From the NCBI GenBank assembly GCA_964522005.1, contig CAZFUK010000002.1, positions 1 to 26,182 on the forward strand: a DNA stretch of 26,182 nt, in the 5' to 3' direction. This document shows, in pieces, positions 7,508 through 21,467 of the stretch (position 1 is the first letter of the stretch; each line of letters opens with the position of its first letter). This DNA comes from an uncultured Anaerolineales bacterium. GTDB lineage: Bacteria > Chloroflexota > Anaerolineae > Epilineales > JAHCIE01. The notes beneath the pieces are model-generated. The model saw nothing but the letters and a program-made list of their open reading frames with translations, ran no database searches and was not told where the DNA came from. A program made the position numbers and the translations under genes.

Positions 7508-10500
7508 TCAGGGCGCGCGGCGGATGTGAAGCGGGACGGTGAGGACGGACGGCGCGACCGTCGGTCCCAGGAGTACCTGGCCGCGCACGGTCTGGCCCGG
7601 CGCCAGGGCGTGCTGGTAGCACACCTGGAGGGTCAGCGGCGTGTTGGCCGTCACGGGGCCGCTGGGCACGCCGCGCACCACAATGTCGTTACCCTGGACG
7701 ATGTCCAGGTCAAGGGTGAACGGGGCCGAGCCGCCCGGCACATCGTAGCCATGCACCCAGACCTGGTACTGACCGTCCGGCGGGCGGCGGACCAGGATGC
7801 TCTCCTGGGCGGTGATCGAGATCGAGCGGGCTACAATCTCATTCGTCGTGAATTGCCCGTCGCGGTTGGCGTCGTAGACCAGGTACAGGTCCAGGTCAGG
7901 CCCCCGCCCGCCGTCCAGGGTCAGGGAGATGGAGACGGCATGGTCCACGCTGAACTGCCGCTTGTAGCTGGCCGTGCTCCGATTATTCGGGTCGTCCTGG
8001 CGGGCAGTGGCCTGAACCCGCTCCGGCTGACTCAGGCCAAAGGCTTCCACCGTCAGACCCGGCAGGTCGAGATTGGCGCGCAGGGCGAGGGGCGCGCAGC
8101 CGCTGACCACGTCGCCAGCCGTGACCGTGGCCGTGATGTCGAAGGCCGGCGGGCTGACCGTCATCGCGCCCACAGTCGTCGTGAACGGCAGCGAGGCCGG
8201 CAGGCCCGGGTGCAGGACGTTGTGGAGCAGCACGGCGTGCAAGCCTTCGCGCGCCGGTCCCGCGATCCACTCGTCTGGCCCCTCGGTCGCCGTCTGGAAC
8301 CGCCAGCGGCCCTGGCTCATGTTCTCGTTGAGGCTCTTGCCGACCACGTCGAGGGTGTAGGGGCCGTAGAAGTCAGGATCGGCCAGGTTCGAGTTGGGCG
8401 GGCTGTTGTCGGGGTGGCCCGGGTCGCTGAACGGGTCCGACGTCGGGCCGAGCAGCAGGGTGTCAATGTCGCTTGTCTGATCCTGGCCCGGCCAGACGTT
8501 GCGCACCAGCCACGCGGCGCCCTCGGCGACCGTGGACGGCGTGTCCAGGAAGAAGAGCCGCCAGTCGCCTGCCTCTTCGCGCCAGGCCCAGTTCATGTAA
8601 CCGGCCAGCGCGCCGTTGTTGTACGGGGCGTTGGGGTCGTTGGCTGCCCGCCCGCCCAGGGTGGCCGAGGTCTGGAAGTCGTAGCGGGTGGCGACGTTGG
8701 CGACGACCGGGATACGGGCCTGGCGGTCGGGGTAGACGCTCGCGGCCCCGCCGCCCCCCGTCTTGCCCGCCTCCCCTCGCCCGGGGGCGCGGGAGATGTG
8801 GGGCAGGAACAGAGTGTAGGGGGCGCGGCCGCCATAGGTGGCGTAGAGCGCGCCCTGGTAGGCGCCGGGCGGGGTGTCGGCGGGGATGGTGAGGGTCGCC
8901 GTGGCAGTGACGGTGCTGTGCGGGTCAATCGTCAGGCGGGTCTGGCCGAAGCGGACCCAGGGCCAGTCCTCGTAGCGGAAGAAGTCGAGCCGAATCTGCA
9001 TCTGGGTGCGGGGTATGGCCTGGGCACGGTTGTTGTGCTGCAAGCCGATGAACAGGCCATCGTGCATGCGCCCGTGGGGCGAGTGCATCTGGACGCGCAG
9101 GGTATTGTTGACCGAGTTGTTGTACATGACGCGCACGTACTCCCAGCGCTGGATCTCGGAGCGGCTCCAATCCAGGTCAGGGAAGCCGTCAATGTTGCTG
9201 CTGCGGGTCGGCAGGAGGTTGGCATGGTCCACCACGCCGTCGCCGTCGCGATCTTCCCACAGCTTGCCGTCGCCGTTGATGTCCGTCCAATCGTAGAGCA
9301 GCAGCCGCCAGGTCTGGTCCTCCTGGTAATCGCGGCCGGCGTCCAACTGGCCCAGTGAGAAGTTGGCCGAGACGACCATCAGGTCGGTGCCCTGGGGGAT
9401 GGCGCCCACCGGGATGAGGTAGTCCGGCGCGTTGAAGTTGTACTGGCTCTCGGCCGAAGCCGCCGCGCTGAAGAAGGGGATGATGCGGCTGTCGAAGCGG
9501 CGCAGCGTCCGGGCGGCGAGGTTGACCTCGACCGCCGCGTCGCCCGGGTTCGACAGGCGGAACGACTGGGTGTCGCTCTGGCCGGGGTAGATGATGTTGG
9601 CGAAGCCGGGGTATTCGCGGCCTCGGTAGTCACCCGCCCGCCACTCGTCCGGCATCGCCAGCACGCCCTGCCGACCGCTGGCGATGTCGGTGGCGTAGTC
9701 GGCGTTGACCGCGCCCGCCCCTTCGCTGAGGGTGTCCGCGCCGGTAGGCGTCGCGCCCGACTTGAGCAGGGCGCGCGCCTCTTCATACGTCGGCCAGCGG
9801 CCGTGCCCGGCCTTGAAGGCCTGGTAGACCAGGGCCAGGTTGCCCGCCGTCACGGGTGTCGAGCGGCTGGTGCCGCCCCATGTTTCCCAGGCGGTCGCGC
9901 CGTCGCCCACCCGGTTGAGTTGTGTCGCGCCCGCGCCTCGGTCGCCGTTGGCGACCACGTCCACCCCTACCTGCCCGCGCGCCGTCAGGCCCCGGTTCGA
10001 GAAGCTGGTCGTGTCACCGTACTGGATCTGCGTGGTGCGGGTAATCGAGTCATAGCCCGTTGTGCCGAACATGGTAGACGCGCCGACGGCGATGCCGACT
10101 TCCGGACCGTTGGGCGTGTCCGTGCCATAGCCCGGCCCGCCGTTGCCCGTGGAGTTGAGGTAGGCGACGGTGGGGTTCTTCTCGCGCACGTAGCGGTCAA
10201 TCCAGCGGCTCAGGTAGTCCCAGCCATCGTTGTCCACCTCGGACCGCCCGTAGCTGTTGCTGGGAATCTGGATGTCGTCGTCCGTGCCGGCCTGGCCGTC
10301 GTAGCCGAACAGCGTCAGGTAGTAGGCGTCGCGGGTGGACACCTCGAAGTTCATATAGGTGTTGCCCACCGGCACCAGGCCGGCCAGGGGCGCCGCGCCG
10401 AGATCGGCGCTGGCCGGCTGGTCGCGCGGGGTCAGGTCGGAGAAGCGGGGCACAAGCCCGCTGGTGCGGCCCTGGCCGACGACGGCCGAACTGCACAGCG

Positions 10501-18537: not shown

Positions 18538-18570
18538 AGACCCTAAAGGTCTTGAAGACCTTTAGGGTCT
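18538..18570. repeat. 33-bp double-palindrome REP-like element, probably also the rpsT terminator
   Basis: AGACCCTAAAGGTCT TGA AGACCTTTAGGGTCT followed by TTCTT; same scaffold as 3272-3304. Confidence 0.8.
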
Positions 18571-18634: not shown

Positions 18635-18663
18635 TTGACAAAGAACGCCTGTTCTGATATACT
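18635..18663 (+). promoter_or_regulatory. lexA operon sigma70-type promoter
   Basis: TTGACA (18635-18640), 17-nt spacer, TATACT (18658-18663), with an A-rich UP-like region upstream. Confidence 0.88.
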
Positions 18664-18694
18664 CTAGAACAAGGGTTCTAAGAACAATCGTTCT
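18642..18694. promoter_or_regulatory. Three tandem LexA (SOS) boxes, AGAAC-N4-GTTCT
   Basis: AGAACgcctGTTCT 18642-18655 (in the promoter spacer), AGAACaaggGTTCT 18666-18679 (over +1) and AGAACaatcGTTCT 18681-18694 (next to the AGGAGG RBS). This matches the Gram-positive/Chloroflexi GAAC-N4-GTTC type. Confidence 0.92.
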
Positions 18695-18708
18695 GTAGGA
18701 GGGGTTAG

Positions 18709-19359
18709 ATGTACGCCGAGATGACGTTTGAAATGACCGAGCACGACACGCGGATTCTAGACTTTGTCGAGGACTACCTGACGGACAAGGGACGCGCGCC
18801 GTCCATTGAAGAGATACGCCAGGCGACCCAGATGGCTTCCAAGGACCACGTCCACCGCGACCTCAAGCGCCTGGAGCAGTTGGGCTTCCTGCGCATCACG
18901 CGCGGCATCGCCCGTGGCATCGAGTTGCTGCGCTGCGCCGACGGTATGGACTACCGCAGCGGCATCCTGGCCGTGCCCATGTGCGGCGTCATCGCCGCTG
19001 GTCAGCCCATCCCCGTTCCCGAGCCGTCCCCCAACGCCTACGACTCGCTCGAACTGACACGCGACATCGTGCGCGACACGCGGGGCGTCTACGCCCTGCG
19101 CGTCAAGGGGACCTCGATGATTGACGCGCTCATCAACGACGGCGACATCGTGATTATGCGCCGCGTGGCGAGCGCCGACAACGGGGACATGGTGGCGGTG
19201 TGGATCAAGAGCCAGGAAGCCACGACGCTCAAGCGTTTCTTTGACGAGGGCGAGCGCATCCGCCTCCAGCCCGAGAACCGCGACATGCAGCCCATCTTCG
19301 TCAACCCTGACGATGTGGAAATCCAGGGTAAAGTGATTGCGGTTATCCGCCACGTCTAA
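18709..19359 (+). CDS. lexA: LexA-type SOS repressor (216 aa)
   Basis: N-terminal wHTH; Ala-Gly cleavage site in GVIAAGQP; catalytic Ser in VKGTSMIDALINDGD; catalytic Lys in TTLKRF; RLQPEN and IQGKVIAV. Confidence 0.93.
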   Translation: MYAEMTFEMTEHDTRILDFVEDYLTDKGRAPSIEEIRQATQMASKDHVHRDLKRLEQLGFLRITRGIARGIELLRCADGMDYRSGILAVPMCGVIAAGQPIPVPEPSPNAYDSLELTRDIVRDTRGVYALRVKGTSMIDALINDGDIVIMRRVASADNGDMVAVWIKSQEATTLKRFFDEGERIRLQPENRDMQPIFVNPDDVEIQGKVIAVIRHV

Positions 19360-19360
19360 A

Positions 19361-19454
19361 ATGACTAATGATTAAAGACTGATGATTGAAGATTAACATC
19401 AGCATCAGTCTTTAATCATCAATCTTGAGTCTTTAGTCATTAGTCTTTTGTCTT
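19361..19454. repeat. AT-rich heptamer tandem-repeat palindrome (STRR-like)
   Basis: Five heptamers ATGACTA ATGATTA AAGACTG ATGATTG AAGATTA, a 10-nt spacer, then seven reverse-complement heptamers CAGTCTT TAATCAT CAATCTT GAGTCTT TAGTCAT TAGTCTT TTGTCTT. Confidence 0.85.
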
Positions 19455-19466
19455 TAGGGAGTGCGT

Positions 19467-20645
19467 ATGGGCAAGCGAGTTGACGAATTGCACTTCCAGG
19501 CCGACCAGATTGAATCAGTGCTCGCCAGCCACCGGCTCCACGGTCGCATCACCGGTGGCTCGGTGACCCCGCAGATGGTGCGCTTCCACCTGTCGCCCGC
19601 GCTCGGCACCCGTGTCAGCCAGATCGCCCGGCTGTCCGAGGAACTCGCCCTGACCCTCGGCGCAGCCACGTGTCGGGTGGTGCGGCGCGGCCAGACCATT
19701 GACCTGGAATTCCCCCGCAGCGACCGGGGCATGGTTCGCCTGTTCGACCTGTCGCGGCGTCTGAACGGGGTGCCCGCTTGCACGGCCATCCTGGGCCTCG
19801 ACGGCGAGGGCACGCCCATCCTGTTGCGGCTCGCCAGCCCCGAAGTGCCCCACGTGCTCATCAGCGGCACGACCGGTTCGGGCAAGACGGCCCTGGCGCG
19901 CAGCATGATCGCCAGTCTGGCCGCCCACAACACGCCGGCCGACCTGGGCCTGCTGCTCATTGACCCCAAGGGCCGGGGCTACGCGCCCTTCGCCAAGCTG
20001 CCCCACCTGCTCGCGCCCATCGCGCAGGACCCGACCGAGGCCATCGCGGTGCTGGAGTGGCTGGTGGGCGAGATGGAGCGGCGCGACCGCGAGCAGATCA
20101 CCCTGCCGCGCATCGTGACCTTTATTGATGAACTGGCCGACCTGGCCCTGGTGGGCGGGCCATCCGTCACGGCGGCCCTGACGCGCCTCTCGCAGCGCGG
20201 CCGCGAGGCGGGCATCCACCTCGTCTGCTGCACGCAGAAGCCGAGCAGTTCCATTATCGGCTCGCTGGTCAAGGCCAACTTCCCGGCGCGGCTGGTGGGC
20301 AGCGTGGCGAGCGCGGAGGACGCGAAGGTCGCCACGGGCATCCCCAAGAGCGGCGCGGAGCGGCTGGCCGGTCGCGGTGACTTCCTCCTGGTCGTCCAGG
20401 GCATCACTCACCGCCTCCAGGCGGCCTACTGCTCCGAGGCGGACATCGCCGCCAGCCTCCCCAAAGGCGAGACGCCGCGTCCGCTCAAGAGCCAGCCGGC
20501 TCTGCCTCCCATTGTCACCCCCGCTGTCACACGGCGGGCGCAGGCTGTCGCCGCCCCGCTCGTCCCTGCCGAAGACGAGCGCAAGGTGGTCAACGCGCCG
20601 TTGCCCCTGCCAAGGCAGCGTCCACACCTGGTACGGGTGAAATAG
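19467..20645 (+). CDS. Soluble FtsK/SpoIIIE-family ATPase: alpha+beta motor only, no TM and no gamma domain (392 aa)
   Basis: Alpha domain (SVTPQMVRFHLSPALGTRVSQIARLSEELAL), Walker A HVLISGTTGSGKT, LIDPKG, Walker B IDELADL, QRGREAGIHLVCCTQKPS, NFPARL, AERLAGRGDFL. ATG 19467 follows AGGGAG. Confidence 0.88.
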   Translation: MGKRVDELHFQADQIESVLASHRLHGRITGGSVTPQMVRFHLSPALGTRVSQIARLSEELALTLGAATCRVVRRGQTIDLEFPRSDRGMVRLFDLSRRLNGVPACTAILGLDGEGTPILLRLASPEVPHVLISGTTGSGKTALARSMIASLAAHNTPADLGLLLIDPKGRGYAPFAKLPHLLAPIAQDPTEAIAVLEWLVGEMERRDREQITLPRIVTFIDELADLALVGGPSVTAALTRLSQRGREAGIHLVCCTQKPSSSIIGSLVKANFPARLVGSVASAEDAKVATGIPKSGAERLAGRGDFLLVVQGITHRLQAAYCSEADIAASLPKGETPRPLKSQPALPPIVTPAVTRRAQAVAAPLVPAEDERKVVNAPLPLPRQRPHLVRVK

Positions 20646-20667
20646 GGTACGACCCTGTCGAGGTCCT

Positions 20668-21063
20668 ATGCAATTGGTCACGCGGCTCTGTCTCATTGCG
20701 TTCTCCGCGGCCCTCGGAATTGCCGTCGCCTATCGGCTCACGCCCGAAGCGATGGCCGTCGTGGTCGGTGTCCTGATGGGCGTCCTGGCGAGCCTGCCCA
20801 TCGCCCTGATTGTGATCTATGCCATGCGCCGCCCGGTCGCGGCGCGAGAGCCGGAAGCCCCCGCCCGGCCCGAACCGCCGACCGTCCACCCGACGGCGTA
20901 TCCCGCCCCGGCGCACGGACTGCCGCAGGGCGCGCCCGCGCCGCAGATTGTCGTGGTGCCCATGCCGCAGGCCGCGATGCCGCGCCAGATGGCAGGCATG
21001 TGGTCCCAGGCGATGCCCGCCCCCGCCCCGCGCGACTTTCATATCATTGGCGAAGACGAGTAA
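20668..21063 (+). CDS. Hypothetical membrane protein: two N-terminal TM helices and a Pro/Ala/Gln-rich tail (131 aa)
   Basis: Hydrophobic LCLIAFSAALGIAVAY and AMAVVVGVLMGVLASLPIALIVIYAM; GAGGT RBS; 22 nt after the ATPase stop; codon usage like neighbouring genes. Confidence 0.78.
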   Translation: MQLVTRLCLIAFSAALGIAVAYRLTPEAMAVVVGVLMGVLASLPIALIVIYAMRRPVAAREPEAPARPEPPTVHPTAYPAPAHGLPQGAPAPQIVVVPMPQAAMPRQMAGMWSQAMPAPAPRDFHIIGEDE

Positions 21064-21086
21064 CGGTTACCCCAAGGAGTTGTAGT

Positions 21087-21401
21087 ATGCAGGTCGGCCT
21101 GCTCTGGTTTGACAAAGACCCCCGTATCCCCTTTATGCAGAAAGTGCTTGAGGCGGCGGAGCGCTATCACGAGAAGTTTGGCGTCGAGGCGAACACATGC
21201 TACGTTCACCCGTCCATCCTGCCCGCCGGCGTGATCGTCCCCGGCTTCGAGCTGCGCACGCGCGCCACGATCCTGCCCCACCACTTCTGGGTGGGCTTCG
21301 CCGAGGACGCCCAGCCCGTGGCCCGTATCACCCCCATCGAGACGGCCGCCCCTCCGGTGGAGGAAGAGCCGCGTCCGCGCCGCAAGCGCCGCGCCGCTTA
21401 A
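21087..21401 (+). CDS. Small hypothetical soluble protein (104 aa)
   Basis: AAGGAG RBS before ATG 21087; MQVGLLWFD...AAERYHEKFG...CYVHP...ILPHHFWVG, ending in a basic tail (PRRKRRAA). Confidence 0.78.
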   Translation: MQVGLLWFDKDPRIPFMQKVLEAAERYHEKFGVEANTCYVHPSILPAGVIVPGFELRTRATILPHHFWVGFAEDAQPVARITPIETAAPPVEEEPRPRRKRRAA

Positions 21402-21427
21402 CCCGAATTTATCCTCCTACCCCTCCT

Positions 21428-21467
21428 CCGTCGCGCTGGTAAGCTCCCACCAGCGCGACGGGCTTTT
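21428..21467 (+). terminator. Intrinsic terminator closing the lexA unit
   Basis: CCGTCGCGCTGGT-AAGCTCCC-ACCAGCGCGACGG perfect 13-bp stem followed by GCTTTT. Confidence 0.75.

Follow-up and report, generated by a model that had tools for sequence, protein, structure and literature searches.

The window analysed here is a stretch of 26,182 nucleotides (nt) from an uncultured Anaerolineales bacterium of activated-sludge and wastewater samples. Between positions 18635 and 21472 of its + strand it holds, in that order, a promoter, three SOS boxes, four genes and a terminator. The genes encode a LexA protein, a soluble FtsK-like motor, a protein with two transmembrane (TM) helices, called here the 2-TM protein or anchor, and a small protein designated HHFW. 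The features of the unit are as follows.

18635..18663, + strand: sigma-70-type promoter, with -35 TTGACA at 18635-18640, a 17-nt spacer and -10 TATACT at 18658-18663 (TG-n- extended)
18642..18655: SOS box 1, exact AGAAC-N4-GTTCT, within the spacer between -35 and -10
18666..18679: SOS box 2, exact AGAAC-N4-GTTCT, beginning 3 nt past the -10 and spanning the likely transcription start
18681..18694: SOS box 3, exact AGAAC-N4-GTTCT, in the leader directly before the Shine-Dalgarno sequence AGGAGG
18709..19359, + strand: lexA, 216 amino acids (aa), operon-embedded, fast-evolving paralogue type ('LexA-B')
19361..19454: AT-rich heptamer-repeat palindrome, a hairpin and dispersed repeat
19467..20645, + strand: soluble FtsK-like motor, 392 aa from the ATG at 19467, alpha and beta domains only
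20668..21063, + strand: 2-TM partner, 131 aa
21087..21401, + strand: HHFW protein, 104 aa
21427..21472, + strand: intrinsic terminator, with a stem-loop at 21427-21462 (14-bp stem with 10 GC pairs, 8-nt loop) followed by CTTTTGAG

The promoter matches 11 of 12 consensus positions, and a scan of the region returned three promoter-like sites where 0.3 were expected from shuffled sequences. Each of the four genes is preceded by a Shine-Dalgarno sequence, the motor and 2-TM genes are separated by 22 nt and the 2-TM and HHFW genes by 23 nt, and a terminator scan of the region found that the operon is closed by a single terminator. As the start of the motor gene, the ATG at 19467, which lies 8 nt past an AGGGAG, is better placed than the GTG at 19461 (394 aa). 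A preliminary description of this DNA had listed the promoter, the three exact boxes, the common strand, the short gaps, the ribosome-binding sites and the terminator, and all of them lie where it had put them. The arrangement suggests that the four genes are co-transcribed. In a metatranscriptome check, in which one dataset alone contained about 5% of the sampled words, a 104-nt contig from sludge bridged the 3' end of lexA and the 5' end of the motor gene in a strain without the hairpin, with DNA carry-over as a possible source. The unit is a real chromosomal operon and is kept across Anaerolineae.

The strict box sequence AGAAC-N4-GTTCT occurs nine times in the genome (6.07 Mb, 67% GC) as against about 1.5 times expected from composition, and three of these nine boxes stand in front of the operon. 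Upstream sequence could be used for 61 unique motor loci; in 55 of them the leader has one or more perfect GAAC-N4-GTTC boxes and in 41 it has two or more, while the background of such boxes elsewhere in the same loci was 19 per 393 kb (0.05 per kb). The lexA gene adjoins the motor gene in 38 of the 61 loci, and in these 38 the operators upstream of lexA are conserved; where lexA is not adjacent, the boxes lie directly before the motor gene, in other classes of the phylum too. The nearest relative, G005, likewise has three boxes, most relatives have two, and two are also found before the motor of the second lexA locus of this genome, described below. The GAAC-N4-GTTC sequence is the Gram-positive type of SOS box, and a LexA box has reportedly been described in Dehalococcoides. 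Because the boxes are conserved across the motor loci, the comparison strongly supports LexA control, with the binding of LexA predicted, and we hold it very probable that the operon belongs to the SOS response. Across the class it is the most consistently LexA-boxed gene set beside lexA.

Boxes were also found at other places in the genome. The only box at recA (TIGR02012, 535 bits; contig C833, L140:1133-1146), GGGACAATTGTTCT, has one mismatch and lies about 70 nt ahead of the start codon. Two GAAC-N4-GTTC boxes also mark a consensus-like promoter (C17:16464-16510, locus L131) that leads to an open reading frame (ORF) of 516 aa whose sole family match is a weak C-terminal LysM (E 8e-4, below cut-off), with an XRE-type helix-turn-helix gene lying divergently upstream. 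At C32:4690 (L137), about 90 nt ahead of ftsZ (TIGR00065, 436 bits), the sequence AGAAC-CCCC-GTTCT forms the centre of an AT-rich palindrome of heptamers, and this box may be the loop of a repeat hairpin and no LexA site. Single boxes between a gene resembling that of single-stranded DNA-binding protein (judged by eye) and mraZ (TIGR00242, 107 bits) at C456:3377 (L138), and upstream of a MutS-like ORF (also by eye) at C63:12439, mark possible further members of the regulon. The ORFs chosen behind the other boxes of the genome were mostly without a family or were probably shadow frames of this 67% GC DNA.

The LexA of the window passes the TIGR00498 equivalog model (167.1 bits, cut-off 110.95) and is composed of the domains PF01726 LexA_DNA_bind (46.9 bits) and PF00717 Peptidase_S24 (92.1 bits). 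It has an Ala-Gly cleavage site (AAG) at residue 96 and a catalytic dyad consisting of the Ser in GTSM (from residue 134) and the Lys in LKRF (from residue 174), which is consistent with autoregulation and RecA-dependent self-cleavage. A second full-length lexA, of the conserved type, lies on contig C152 (L015:8151-10258). After it come a separate promoter, with TTGACA and two boxes (9008-9050), then a 167-aa Cys-rich ORF (9076-9579) without a Pfam family, which is absent at the orthologous locus of a congener, and finally a second FtsK-like motor gene truncated by the contig end. In relatives, this second module has the 2-TM gene and lacks HHFW, and in many other Anaerolineae a tandem pair of lexA genes precedes the motor gene. 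In a tree of LexA sequences all 12 of the 12 distal copies, the C152 copy and its orthologues formed one short-branched clade (support 97/91). The window LexA fell outside this conserved-type clade, among the faster-evolving copies that stand directly before the motor, and its DNA-binding domain scores lower (46.9 vs 64.2 bits). The lexA gene that the preliminary description had assigned to the module thus codes for a LexA by the equivalog test but, judged by the tree, is an operon-embedded paralogue, the conserved type being the one on C152; the operon carries a LexA paralogue of its own. Because both promoters use the same box, cross-regulation between the two LexA modules is likely.

The motor consists of an FtsK_alpha domain (PF17854, residues 8-85, E 1.7e-10) and an FtsK_SpoIIIE domain (PF01580, E 3.3e-38), and its closest solved relative is the FtsK of Pseudomonas aeruginosa (2IUU, E 5e-52), with which its motifs align. 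Walker A (GTTGSGKT), Walker B (IDELAD), TQKPS and PARLVG, the Arg of which we take to be the arginine finger, are all intact. We detected no TM helix in this protein (maximum 19-residue hydropathy 1.34) and no match to the gamma domain PF09397 at E <= 0.1 in Pfam, and from about residue 326 its tail is Pro-rich and of low complexity. The soluble FtsK motor of the preliminary description was recovered, as an alpha/beta ATPase with intact Walker and arginine-finger motifs and without TM helices or gamma domain. Compared with the model of canonical FtsK (PRK10263) it reached 156 bits where the cut-off is 1566, which makes it no member of that group, and the N-terminal domain of four TM helices is missing; it is likewise no member of the TraB family (NF041214, 30 bits, cut-off 800) or of the CedB family (NF041017, 11.7 bits, cut-off 700). 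Two canonical, gamma-bearing FtsK proteins are encoded elsewhere in the genome, and the motor is therefore an extra copy. By its sequence it is a soluble ATPase of the FtsK/SpoIIIE family, closest to true FtsK and not a canonical FtsK, for which we infer DNA translocation from homology. The soluble motor is present in about 35 of 60 relatives, spanning most families of the class, and in none of the 17 members of the large family f3; among 150 genomes sampled from the rest of the phylum only four had it.

The 2-TM protein has its two helices within residues 5-52, followed by Arg-Arg and by a tail with 24% Pro that ends in RDFHIIGEDE. It matched no family in Pfam, NCBIfam, PHROG or PADLOC, and a LysM domain was not found by Pfam. 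Among 60 motor loci with enough downstream sequence, an ORF of 108-164 aa for a 2-TM protein came next after the motor gene in 59, its start overlapping the stop codon of the motor gene in several loci, and all 59 of the 59 products carried a C-terminal motif of the R-x-F-x-[VI]-[VI]-G type, in its full range [RKQ]-x-[FLY]-x-[VIL]-[VIL]-G. The loop between the helices, QRMS-T/D-D/E-AMAVV, is conserved as well; the stretch of tail from the second helix to the motif varies and contains much Pro and Gln. Since Arg-Arg follows the second helix, the positive-inside rule predicts that this tail is cytoplasmic. We read the 2-TM protein as a candidate tether of the motor, because the two together rebuild on two polypeptides the membrane domain, linker and motor of FtsK. 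The preliminary description had proposed conservation of the neighbourhood as a check on the unit, and it is borne out for the boxes (55/61), for the adjacent lexA (38/61) and for the 2-TM gene after the motor (59/60).

The HHFW protein has a conserved core of about 75 aa, an acidic and Pro-containing linker and an RRKRRAA tail that is confined to this family of genomes. A confident AlphaFold2 model (mean predicted local distance difference test score, pLDDT, 85; predicted template modelling score, pTM, 0.70) gave a strand-helix-strand-strand-strand core of about 75 residues, and Foldseek found no significant relative of this fold, the best E values being 0.5 in the PDB and 0.02, for unnamed proteins, in BFVD. 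The family had no match in Pfam, NCBIfam, PHROGs or PADLOC, no LysM domain, and in the protein atlas only unnamed Chloroflexota clusters. A profile built from 23 relatives retrieved 2,878 clusters (50% identity) among 1.84 billion proteins. Members of the family are nearly all stand-alone proteins of 75-130 aa, and seven longer ones (130-421 aa) showed no Pfam domain. A 595-aa fusion of HHFW with MurD (L128:5192-5318) proved to be an artefact in which a masked run of N bridges two genes.

In most motor-bearing genomes the HHFW gene lies downstream of the motor gene on the same contig. A scan of 185,579 species genomes returned 75 HHFW loci, all in metagenome-assembled genomes (MAGs); all but two were labelled Chloroflexota, Anaerolineae or a lineage within, the others being an unclassified bacterium and a Myxococcales-labelled MAG. 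Not all copies belong to a motor operon. In one clade, the murJ-rpsT locus holds an SOS box and HHFW and no motor (seven loci); a box lies at most 150 nt upstream of HHFW in five of these seven (30-40 nt in the cases read). HHFW directly follows lexA in one locus, and in six loci it stands between mraY and murD-ftsW, in the division/cell-wall (dcw) cluster; within 5 kb of HHFW loci we found neither FtsZ nor MraZ. HHFW was also present in four phage-like contigs of IMG/VR, in one with a DnaB-type helicase and a DNA methyltransferase as neighbours, in another near an FtsK-like gene and in the remaining two among ORFs without matches, and a tblastn search of 50,697 phage records gave no match. 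In a poorly resolved tree of 82 columns, the dcw and murJ copies formed small derived clades nested among operon copies, and because of this nesting the operon context of HHFW looks the older one. Conversely, HHFW is missing beside the motor and anchor of family f5 and of this genome's second module. The module is thus made up of two units that can be separated, the motor with its anchor on the one hand and HHFW on the other, under a common promoter. The single SOS module of the preliminary description holds good as a conserved, LexA-boxed unit but not as an indivisible one, HHFW being separable from motor and anchor.

Two further observations concern the order of genes downstream of the motor. 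In loci L097 and L104 of other genomes, a more divergent FtsK-like gene (31-39% identity) is followed about 210 nt on by HHFW, with no 2-TM gene, so that HHFW persists where the anchor is lost. In other Anaerolineae, a gene for a DUF6504 protein of 86-112 aa (up to 37.7 bits, cut-off 24.2) lies between anchor and HHFW (L062, L093, L109, L114, L116, L118, L121 and L124). In the present genome, DUF6504 matches were located on C137 and C136; a RecA-like gene, possibly ImuA, shares the strand of the C136 match at a distance of about 1.2 kb. No paper found in a full-text literature search mentioned DUF6504.

The 94-nt palindrome between lexA and the motor gene (19361-19454) is AT-rich, with a fold energy of -38.9 kcal/mol; its stem has no U-tract behind it, and there is no promoter-like site at 19360-19467. 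Partial copies of it occur on dozens of other contigs, and AT-rich heptamer palindromes are dispersed in the genome (e.g. on C591, C791, C724 and C241). Genome-wide, 119 windows of 60 nt had less than 35% GC, and many of these AT-rich islands are built of units such as GATTTAC, AATCTTT and TAATCAT. The gap from lexA to the motor gene measures 20-35 nt in most relatives, and the insertion is specific to this strain and G005. By these comparisons the hairpin is best described as a strain-level insertion of a dispersed repeat that lies outside the design of the module; the preliminary description had named it as the point past which co-transcription should extend. A role as a designed attenuator was rejected, since the element is a dispersed repeat and is missing in most relatives.

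Upstream, the operon is flanked by murJ (lipid II flippase, minus strand) and rpsT (ribosomal protein S20), and downstream by a gene for a large polysaccharide-synthesis/flippase membrane protein. The synteny of these flanks is common to relatives. The preliminary description had placed the unit between housekeeping-type genes, and these flanks agree with it; the part of the window ORFs that was scanned included no gene for an integrase, relaxase, rep or structural protein.

We propose that in the undamaged cell LexA would sit on the three operators, which span the promoter spacer, the transcription start and the leader. Upon damage, RecA would stimulate the self-cleavage of LexA, and one transcript with four products would be made, from which fresh LexA would reset the switch. 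The motor would act as an alpha/beta hexameric pump of dsDNA that has neither a membrane domain nor a gamma domain of its own, the latter being the part that reads FtsK orienting polar sequences (KOPS) and activates XerD. The 2-TM protein would tether this pump to the membrane or the septum by means of its Pro-rich cytoplasmic tail and its C-terminal peptide, giving a 'split FtsK', and HHFW, small and soluble, would not depend on the motor and would have its target in the machinery of division or of peptidoglycan. The likeliest job of the set would be to keep closing septa off damaged, unsegregated chromosomes in filaments, by pumping the DNA out of the way and by delaying or modulating septation. 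The contact of motor and anchor, the pumping of DNA, the binding of LexA and the cellular role are predictions made from sequence, and we put forward this model, a damage-induced and membrane-tethered DNA pump together with a division or cell-wall effector, tentatively, giving it an even chance or slightly less. Among the options named in the preliminary description, it corresponds to chromosome clearing or a division checkpoint, which is favoured by the position of some HHFW copies between mraY and murD and of others beside murJ.

Several points weigh against this proposal. The related loci with a named source are all from uncultured MAGs. Directed clearance is not obviously achievable, because the motor has no gamma domain and no reading of chromosome polarity. 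The hairpin of -38.9 kcal/mol could attenuate read-through from lexA to the motor gene, and in this strain might dampen it. The phage-like contig in which HHFW stands beside a DnaB helicase and a methyltransferase fits a part in DNA metabolism as well as one in division, and the dcw and murJ copies that point to division are small derived clades of a poorly resolved 82-column tree. Finally, the 516-aa protein behind the two boxes on C17 could be the true division inhibitor of the YneA/ChiZ type. One alternative would make the 2-TM protein itself the SOS division inhibitor and the motor a soluble remodeller of DNA or nucleoprotein, which might, for instance, strip proteins off DNA or move recombination intermediates. 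The protein is small, membrane-bound and SOS-boxed and adjoins lexA as inhibitors do in known cases, and the motor is predicted to be soluble, as is the FtsK relative SftA of Bacillus subtilis. However, the near-obligate linkage to the motor (59/60) and the overlapping stop and start codons are more typical of subunits, LysM is absent, and by prediction most of the protein, as well as its conserved C-terminal peptide, lies in the cytoplasm, in contrast to YneA and ChiZ with their extracytoplasmic LysM. We regard this alternative as unlikely. It is more doubtful still that the operon serves a damage-induced exchange of DNA, in which dsDNA would be moved across the septa of the filament or imported for recombinational repair in the manner of TraB/Spd or Ced. 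Such a role, which the preliminary description had also considered, would suit hosts that are generally held to be filamentous and multicellular, here in activated sludge, and a motor that does not read chromosome polarity, and the HHFW relatives and FtsK-like gene in phage-like contigs hint at kinship with mobile elements. The motor, however, is far nearer to FtsK (156 bits) than to TraB (30 bits of 800) or CedB (12 bits of 700), the locus is stable and chromosomal, and it offers no winged helix-turn-helix/clt domain, Spd-like set, pilus gene or polytopic pore, the partner having just two helices.

The fast-evolving LexA of the window matches phage repressor PHROGs, the motor has a match in the defence protein SspH, in the C-terminal part that resembles FtsK, and four HHFW relatives are found in IMG/VR contigs, all of which would fit a prophage or mobile remnant, or of an anti-phage defence system, with the LexA-like protein as a CI-type switch. 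Against this stand the absence of mobile genes among those seen and the murJ, rpsT and envelope flanks that are syntenic in relatives, the lack of any PADLOC or PHROG family for the 2-TM and HHFW proteins and of HHFW in the 50,697 phage records searched by tblastn, a LexA that passes the LexA equivalog cut-off, operators of the same GAAC-N4-GTTC form as those of the conserved LexA paralogue with a near-form at recA, and inheritance of the module across many families of the class. We consider this origin very improbable. In PADLOC only the motor matched (the generic FtsK-like part of SspH, mad8 and HerA) and the other three proteins did not; anti-phage defence was rejected because no partner protein matches any model of that library, and the defence ATPase that the preliminary description had offered as an option found no support there. 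The hairpin could also split the unit in this genome by ending the lexA transcript, which would leave the downstream genes silent or served by a promoter of their own, without SOS control. Its stability of -38.9 kcal/mol and the restriction of the insertion to this strain and G005 speak for such a split, to which we nevertheless assign only a slight chance, as the stem is followed by no U-tract, the stretch at 19360-19467 holds no promoter-like site, and palindromic repeats of this kind are common in the intergenic spaces of the genome. In addition, the genes beyond the hairpin are undamaged and share 93-95% identity with their G005 counterparts, and they are thus under selection. A bolder reading would take HHFW, with its copies between mraY and murD-ftsW and beside murJ, for the founder of a new, phylum-wide class of small SOS effectors that acts directly on lipid II or the divisome and was borrowed by phages, with motor and anchor forming a damage-induced trans-septal pump by which neighbouring cells of the filament would share chromosomal DNA for recombinational repair; we find this reading improbable.

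Systems that share parts of the design are known. The SOS response of Escherichia coli induces ftsK through dinH, a promoter under LexA regulation (PMC4080785, citing Wang & Lutkenhaus 1998 and Dorazi & Dewar 2000). The likeness lies in an FtsK-family dsDNA translocase that is raised by the SOS response and has homologous motor domains; E. coli FtsK is a single 147-kDa chain with its own membrane domain, linker and gamma domain and with an essential housekeeping role. The motor of the window differs in being an extra alpha/beta paralogue with a separate 2-TM partner; it shares an operon with lexA and exists beside two canonical FtsK proteins. The smeA-sffA operon of Streptomyces encodes a translocase of the FtsK/SpoIIIE family, SffA, together with SmeA, a small membrane protein by which SffA is brought to septa (PMC6428758, citing Ausmees et al. 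2007), the same two-part logic that we propose for motor and anchor. Unlike the module of the window, smeA-sffA is under developmental control (BldC/BldD, sporulation) and not under that of LexA, and it has no HHFW partner. The 2-TM protein is likened to SmeA by description only, as it showed no similarity to the families in the libraries searched.

Division inhibitors induced in the SOS response are encoded next to lexA in several bacteria, such as YneA of B. subtilis, ChiZ of Mycobacterium tuberculosis, SosA of Staphylococcus aureus and DivS of Corynebacterium glutamicum, and Caulobacter has SidA and DidA. The operon resembles those of YneA, ChiZ, SosA and DivS in having small proteins encoded beside lexA behind GAAC-N4-GTTC boxes, with the coupling to division being predicted here. 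In contrast to YneA and ChiZ, which combine a single TM helix with an extracytoplasmic LysM, the 2-TM protein has no LysM or extracytoplasmic domain and is tied to an ATPase, and HHFW is soluble and dissimilar to all of these inhibitors. SftA of B. subtilis is a soluble FtsK paralogue that keeps the gamma domain and exists beside a membrane-bound one; the motor of the window is comparable as an FtsK-type motor without TM helices beside a membrane-bound paralogue, and we know of no LexA regulation and no dedicated membrane partner gene for SftA. The TraB/Spd system of Streptomyces and the UV-induced Ced system of Sulfolobales move dsDNA between cells by means of FtsK/HerA ATPases and small membrane proteins, and the module of the window is unlike them in scoring far below the cut-offs and in having no DNA-recognition domain or polytopic pore.

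The preliminary description knew of no characterised system with this layout, and our literature search found none either; the full-text literature yielded no account of an operon in Chloroflexota or Anaerolineae that links a soluble FtsK to lexA. LexA operators, FtsK motors and small membrane recruiters are known kinds of part, and what is undescribed is the module and the families of the anchor and of HHFW. The operon joins a familiar motor to two unannotated protein families, and as a natural 'split FtsK' it offers a way to dissect the targeting of a motor that has no membrane and gamma domains of its own. Chloroflexota are a large, mostly uncultured phylum whose filamentous members are common in wastewater sludge, and to our knowledge nothing experimental is known of how these bacteria couple DNA damage to chromosome handling and division. 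The operon is a candidate for the missing SOS division checkpoint of the phylum.

A minor observation concerns the neighbouring rpsT gene. Its terminator hairpin (18538-18570, 15-bp stem) was 90-95% identical to four unrelated metatranscriptome contigs from sludge, and the sequence of this hairpin recurs in other organisms or loci.

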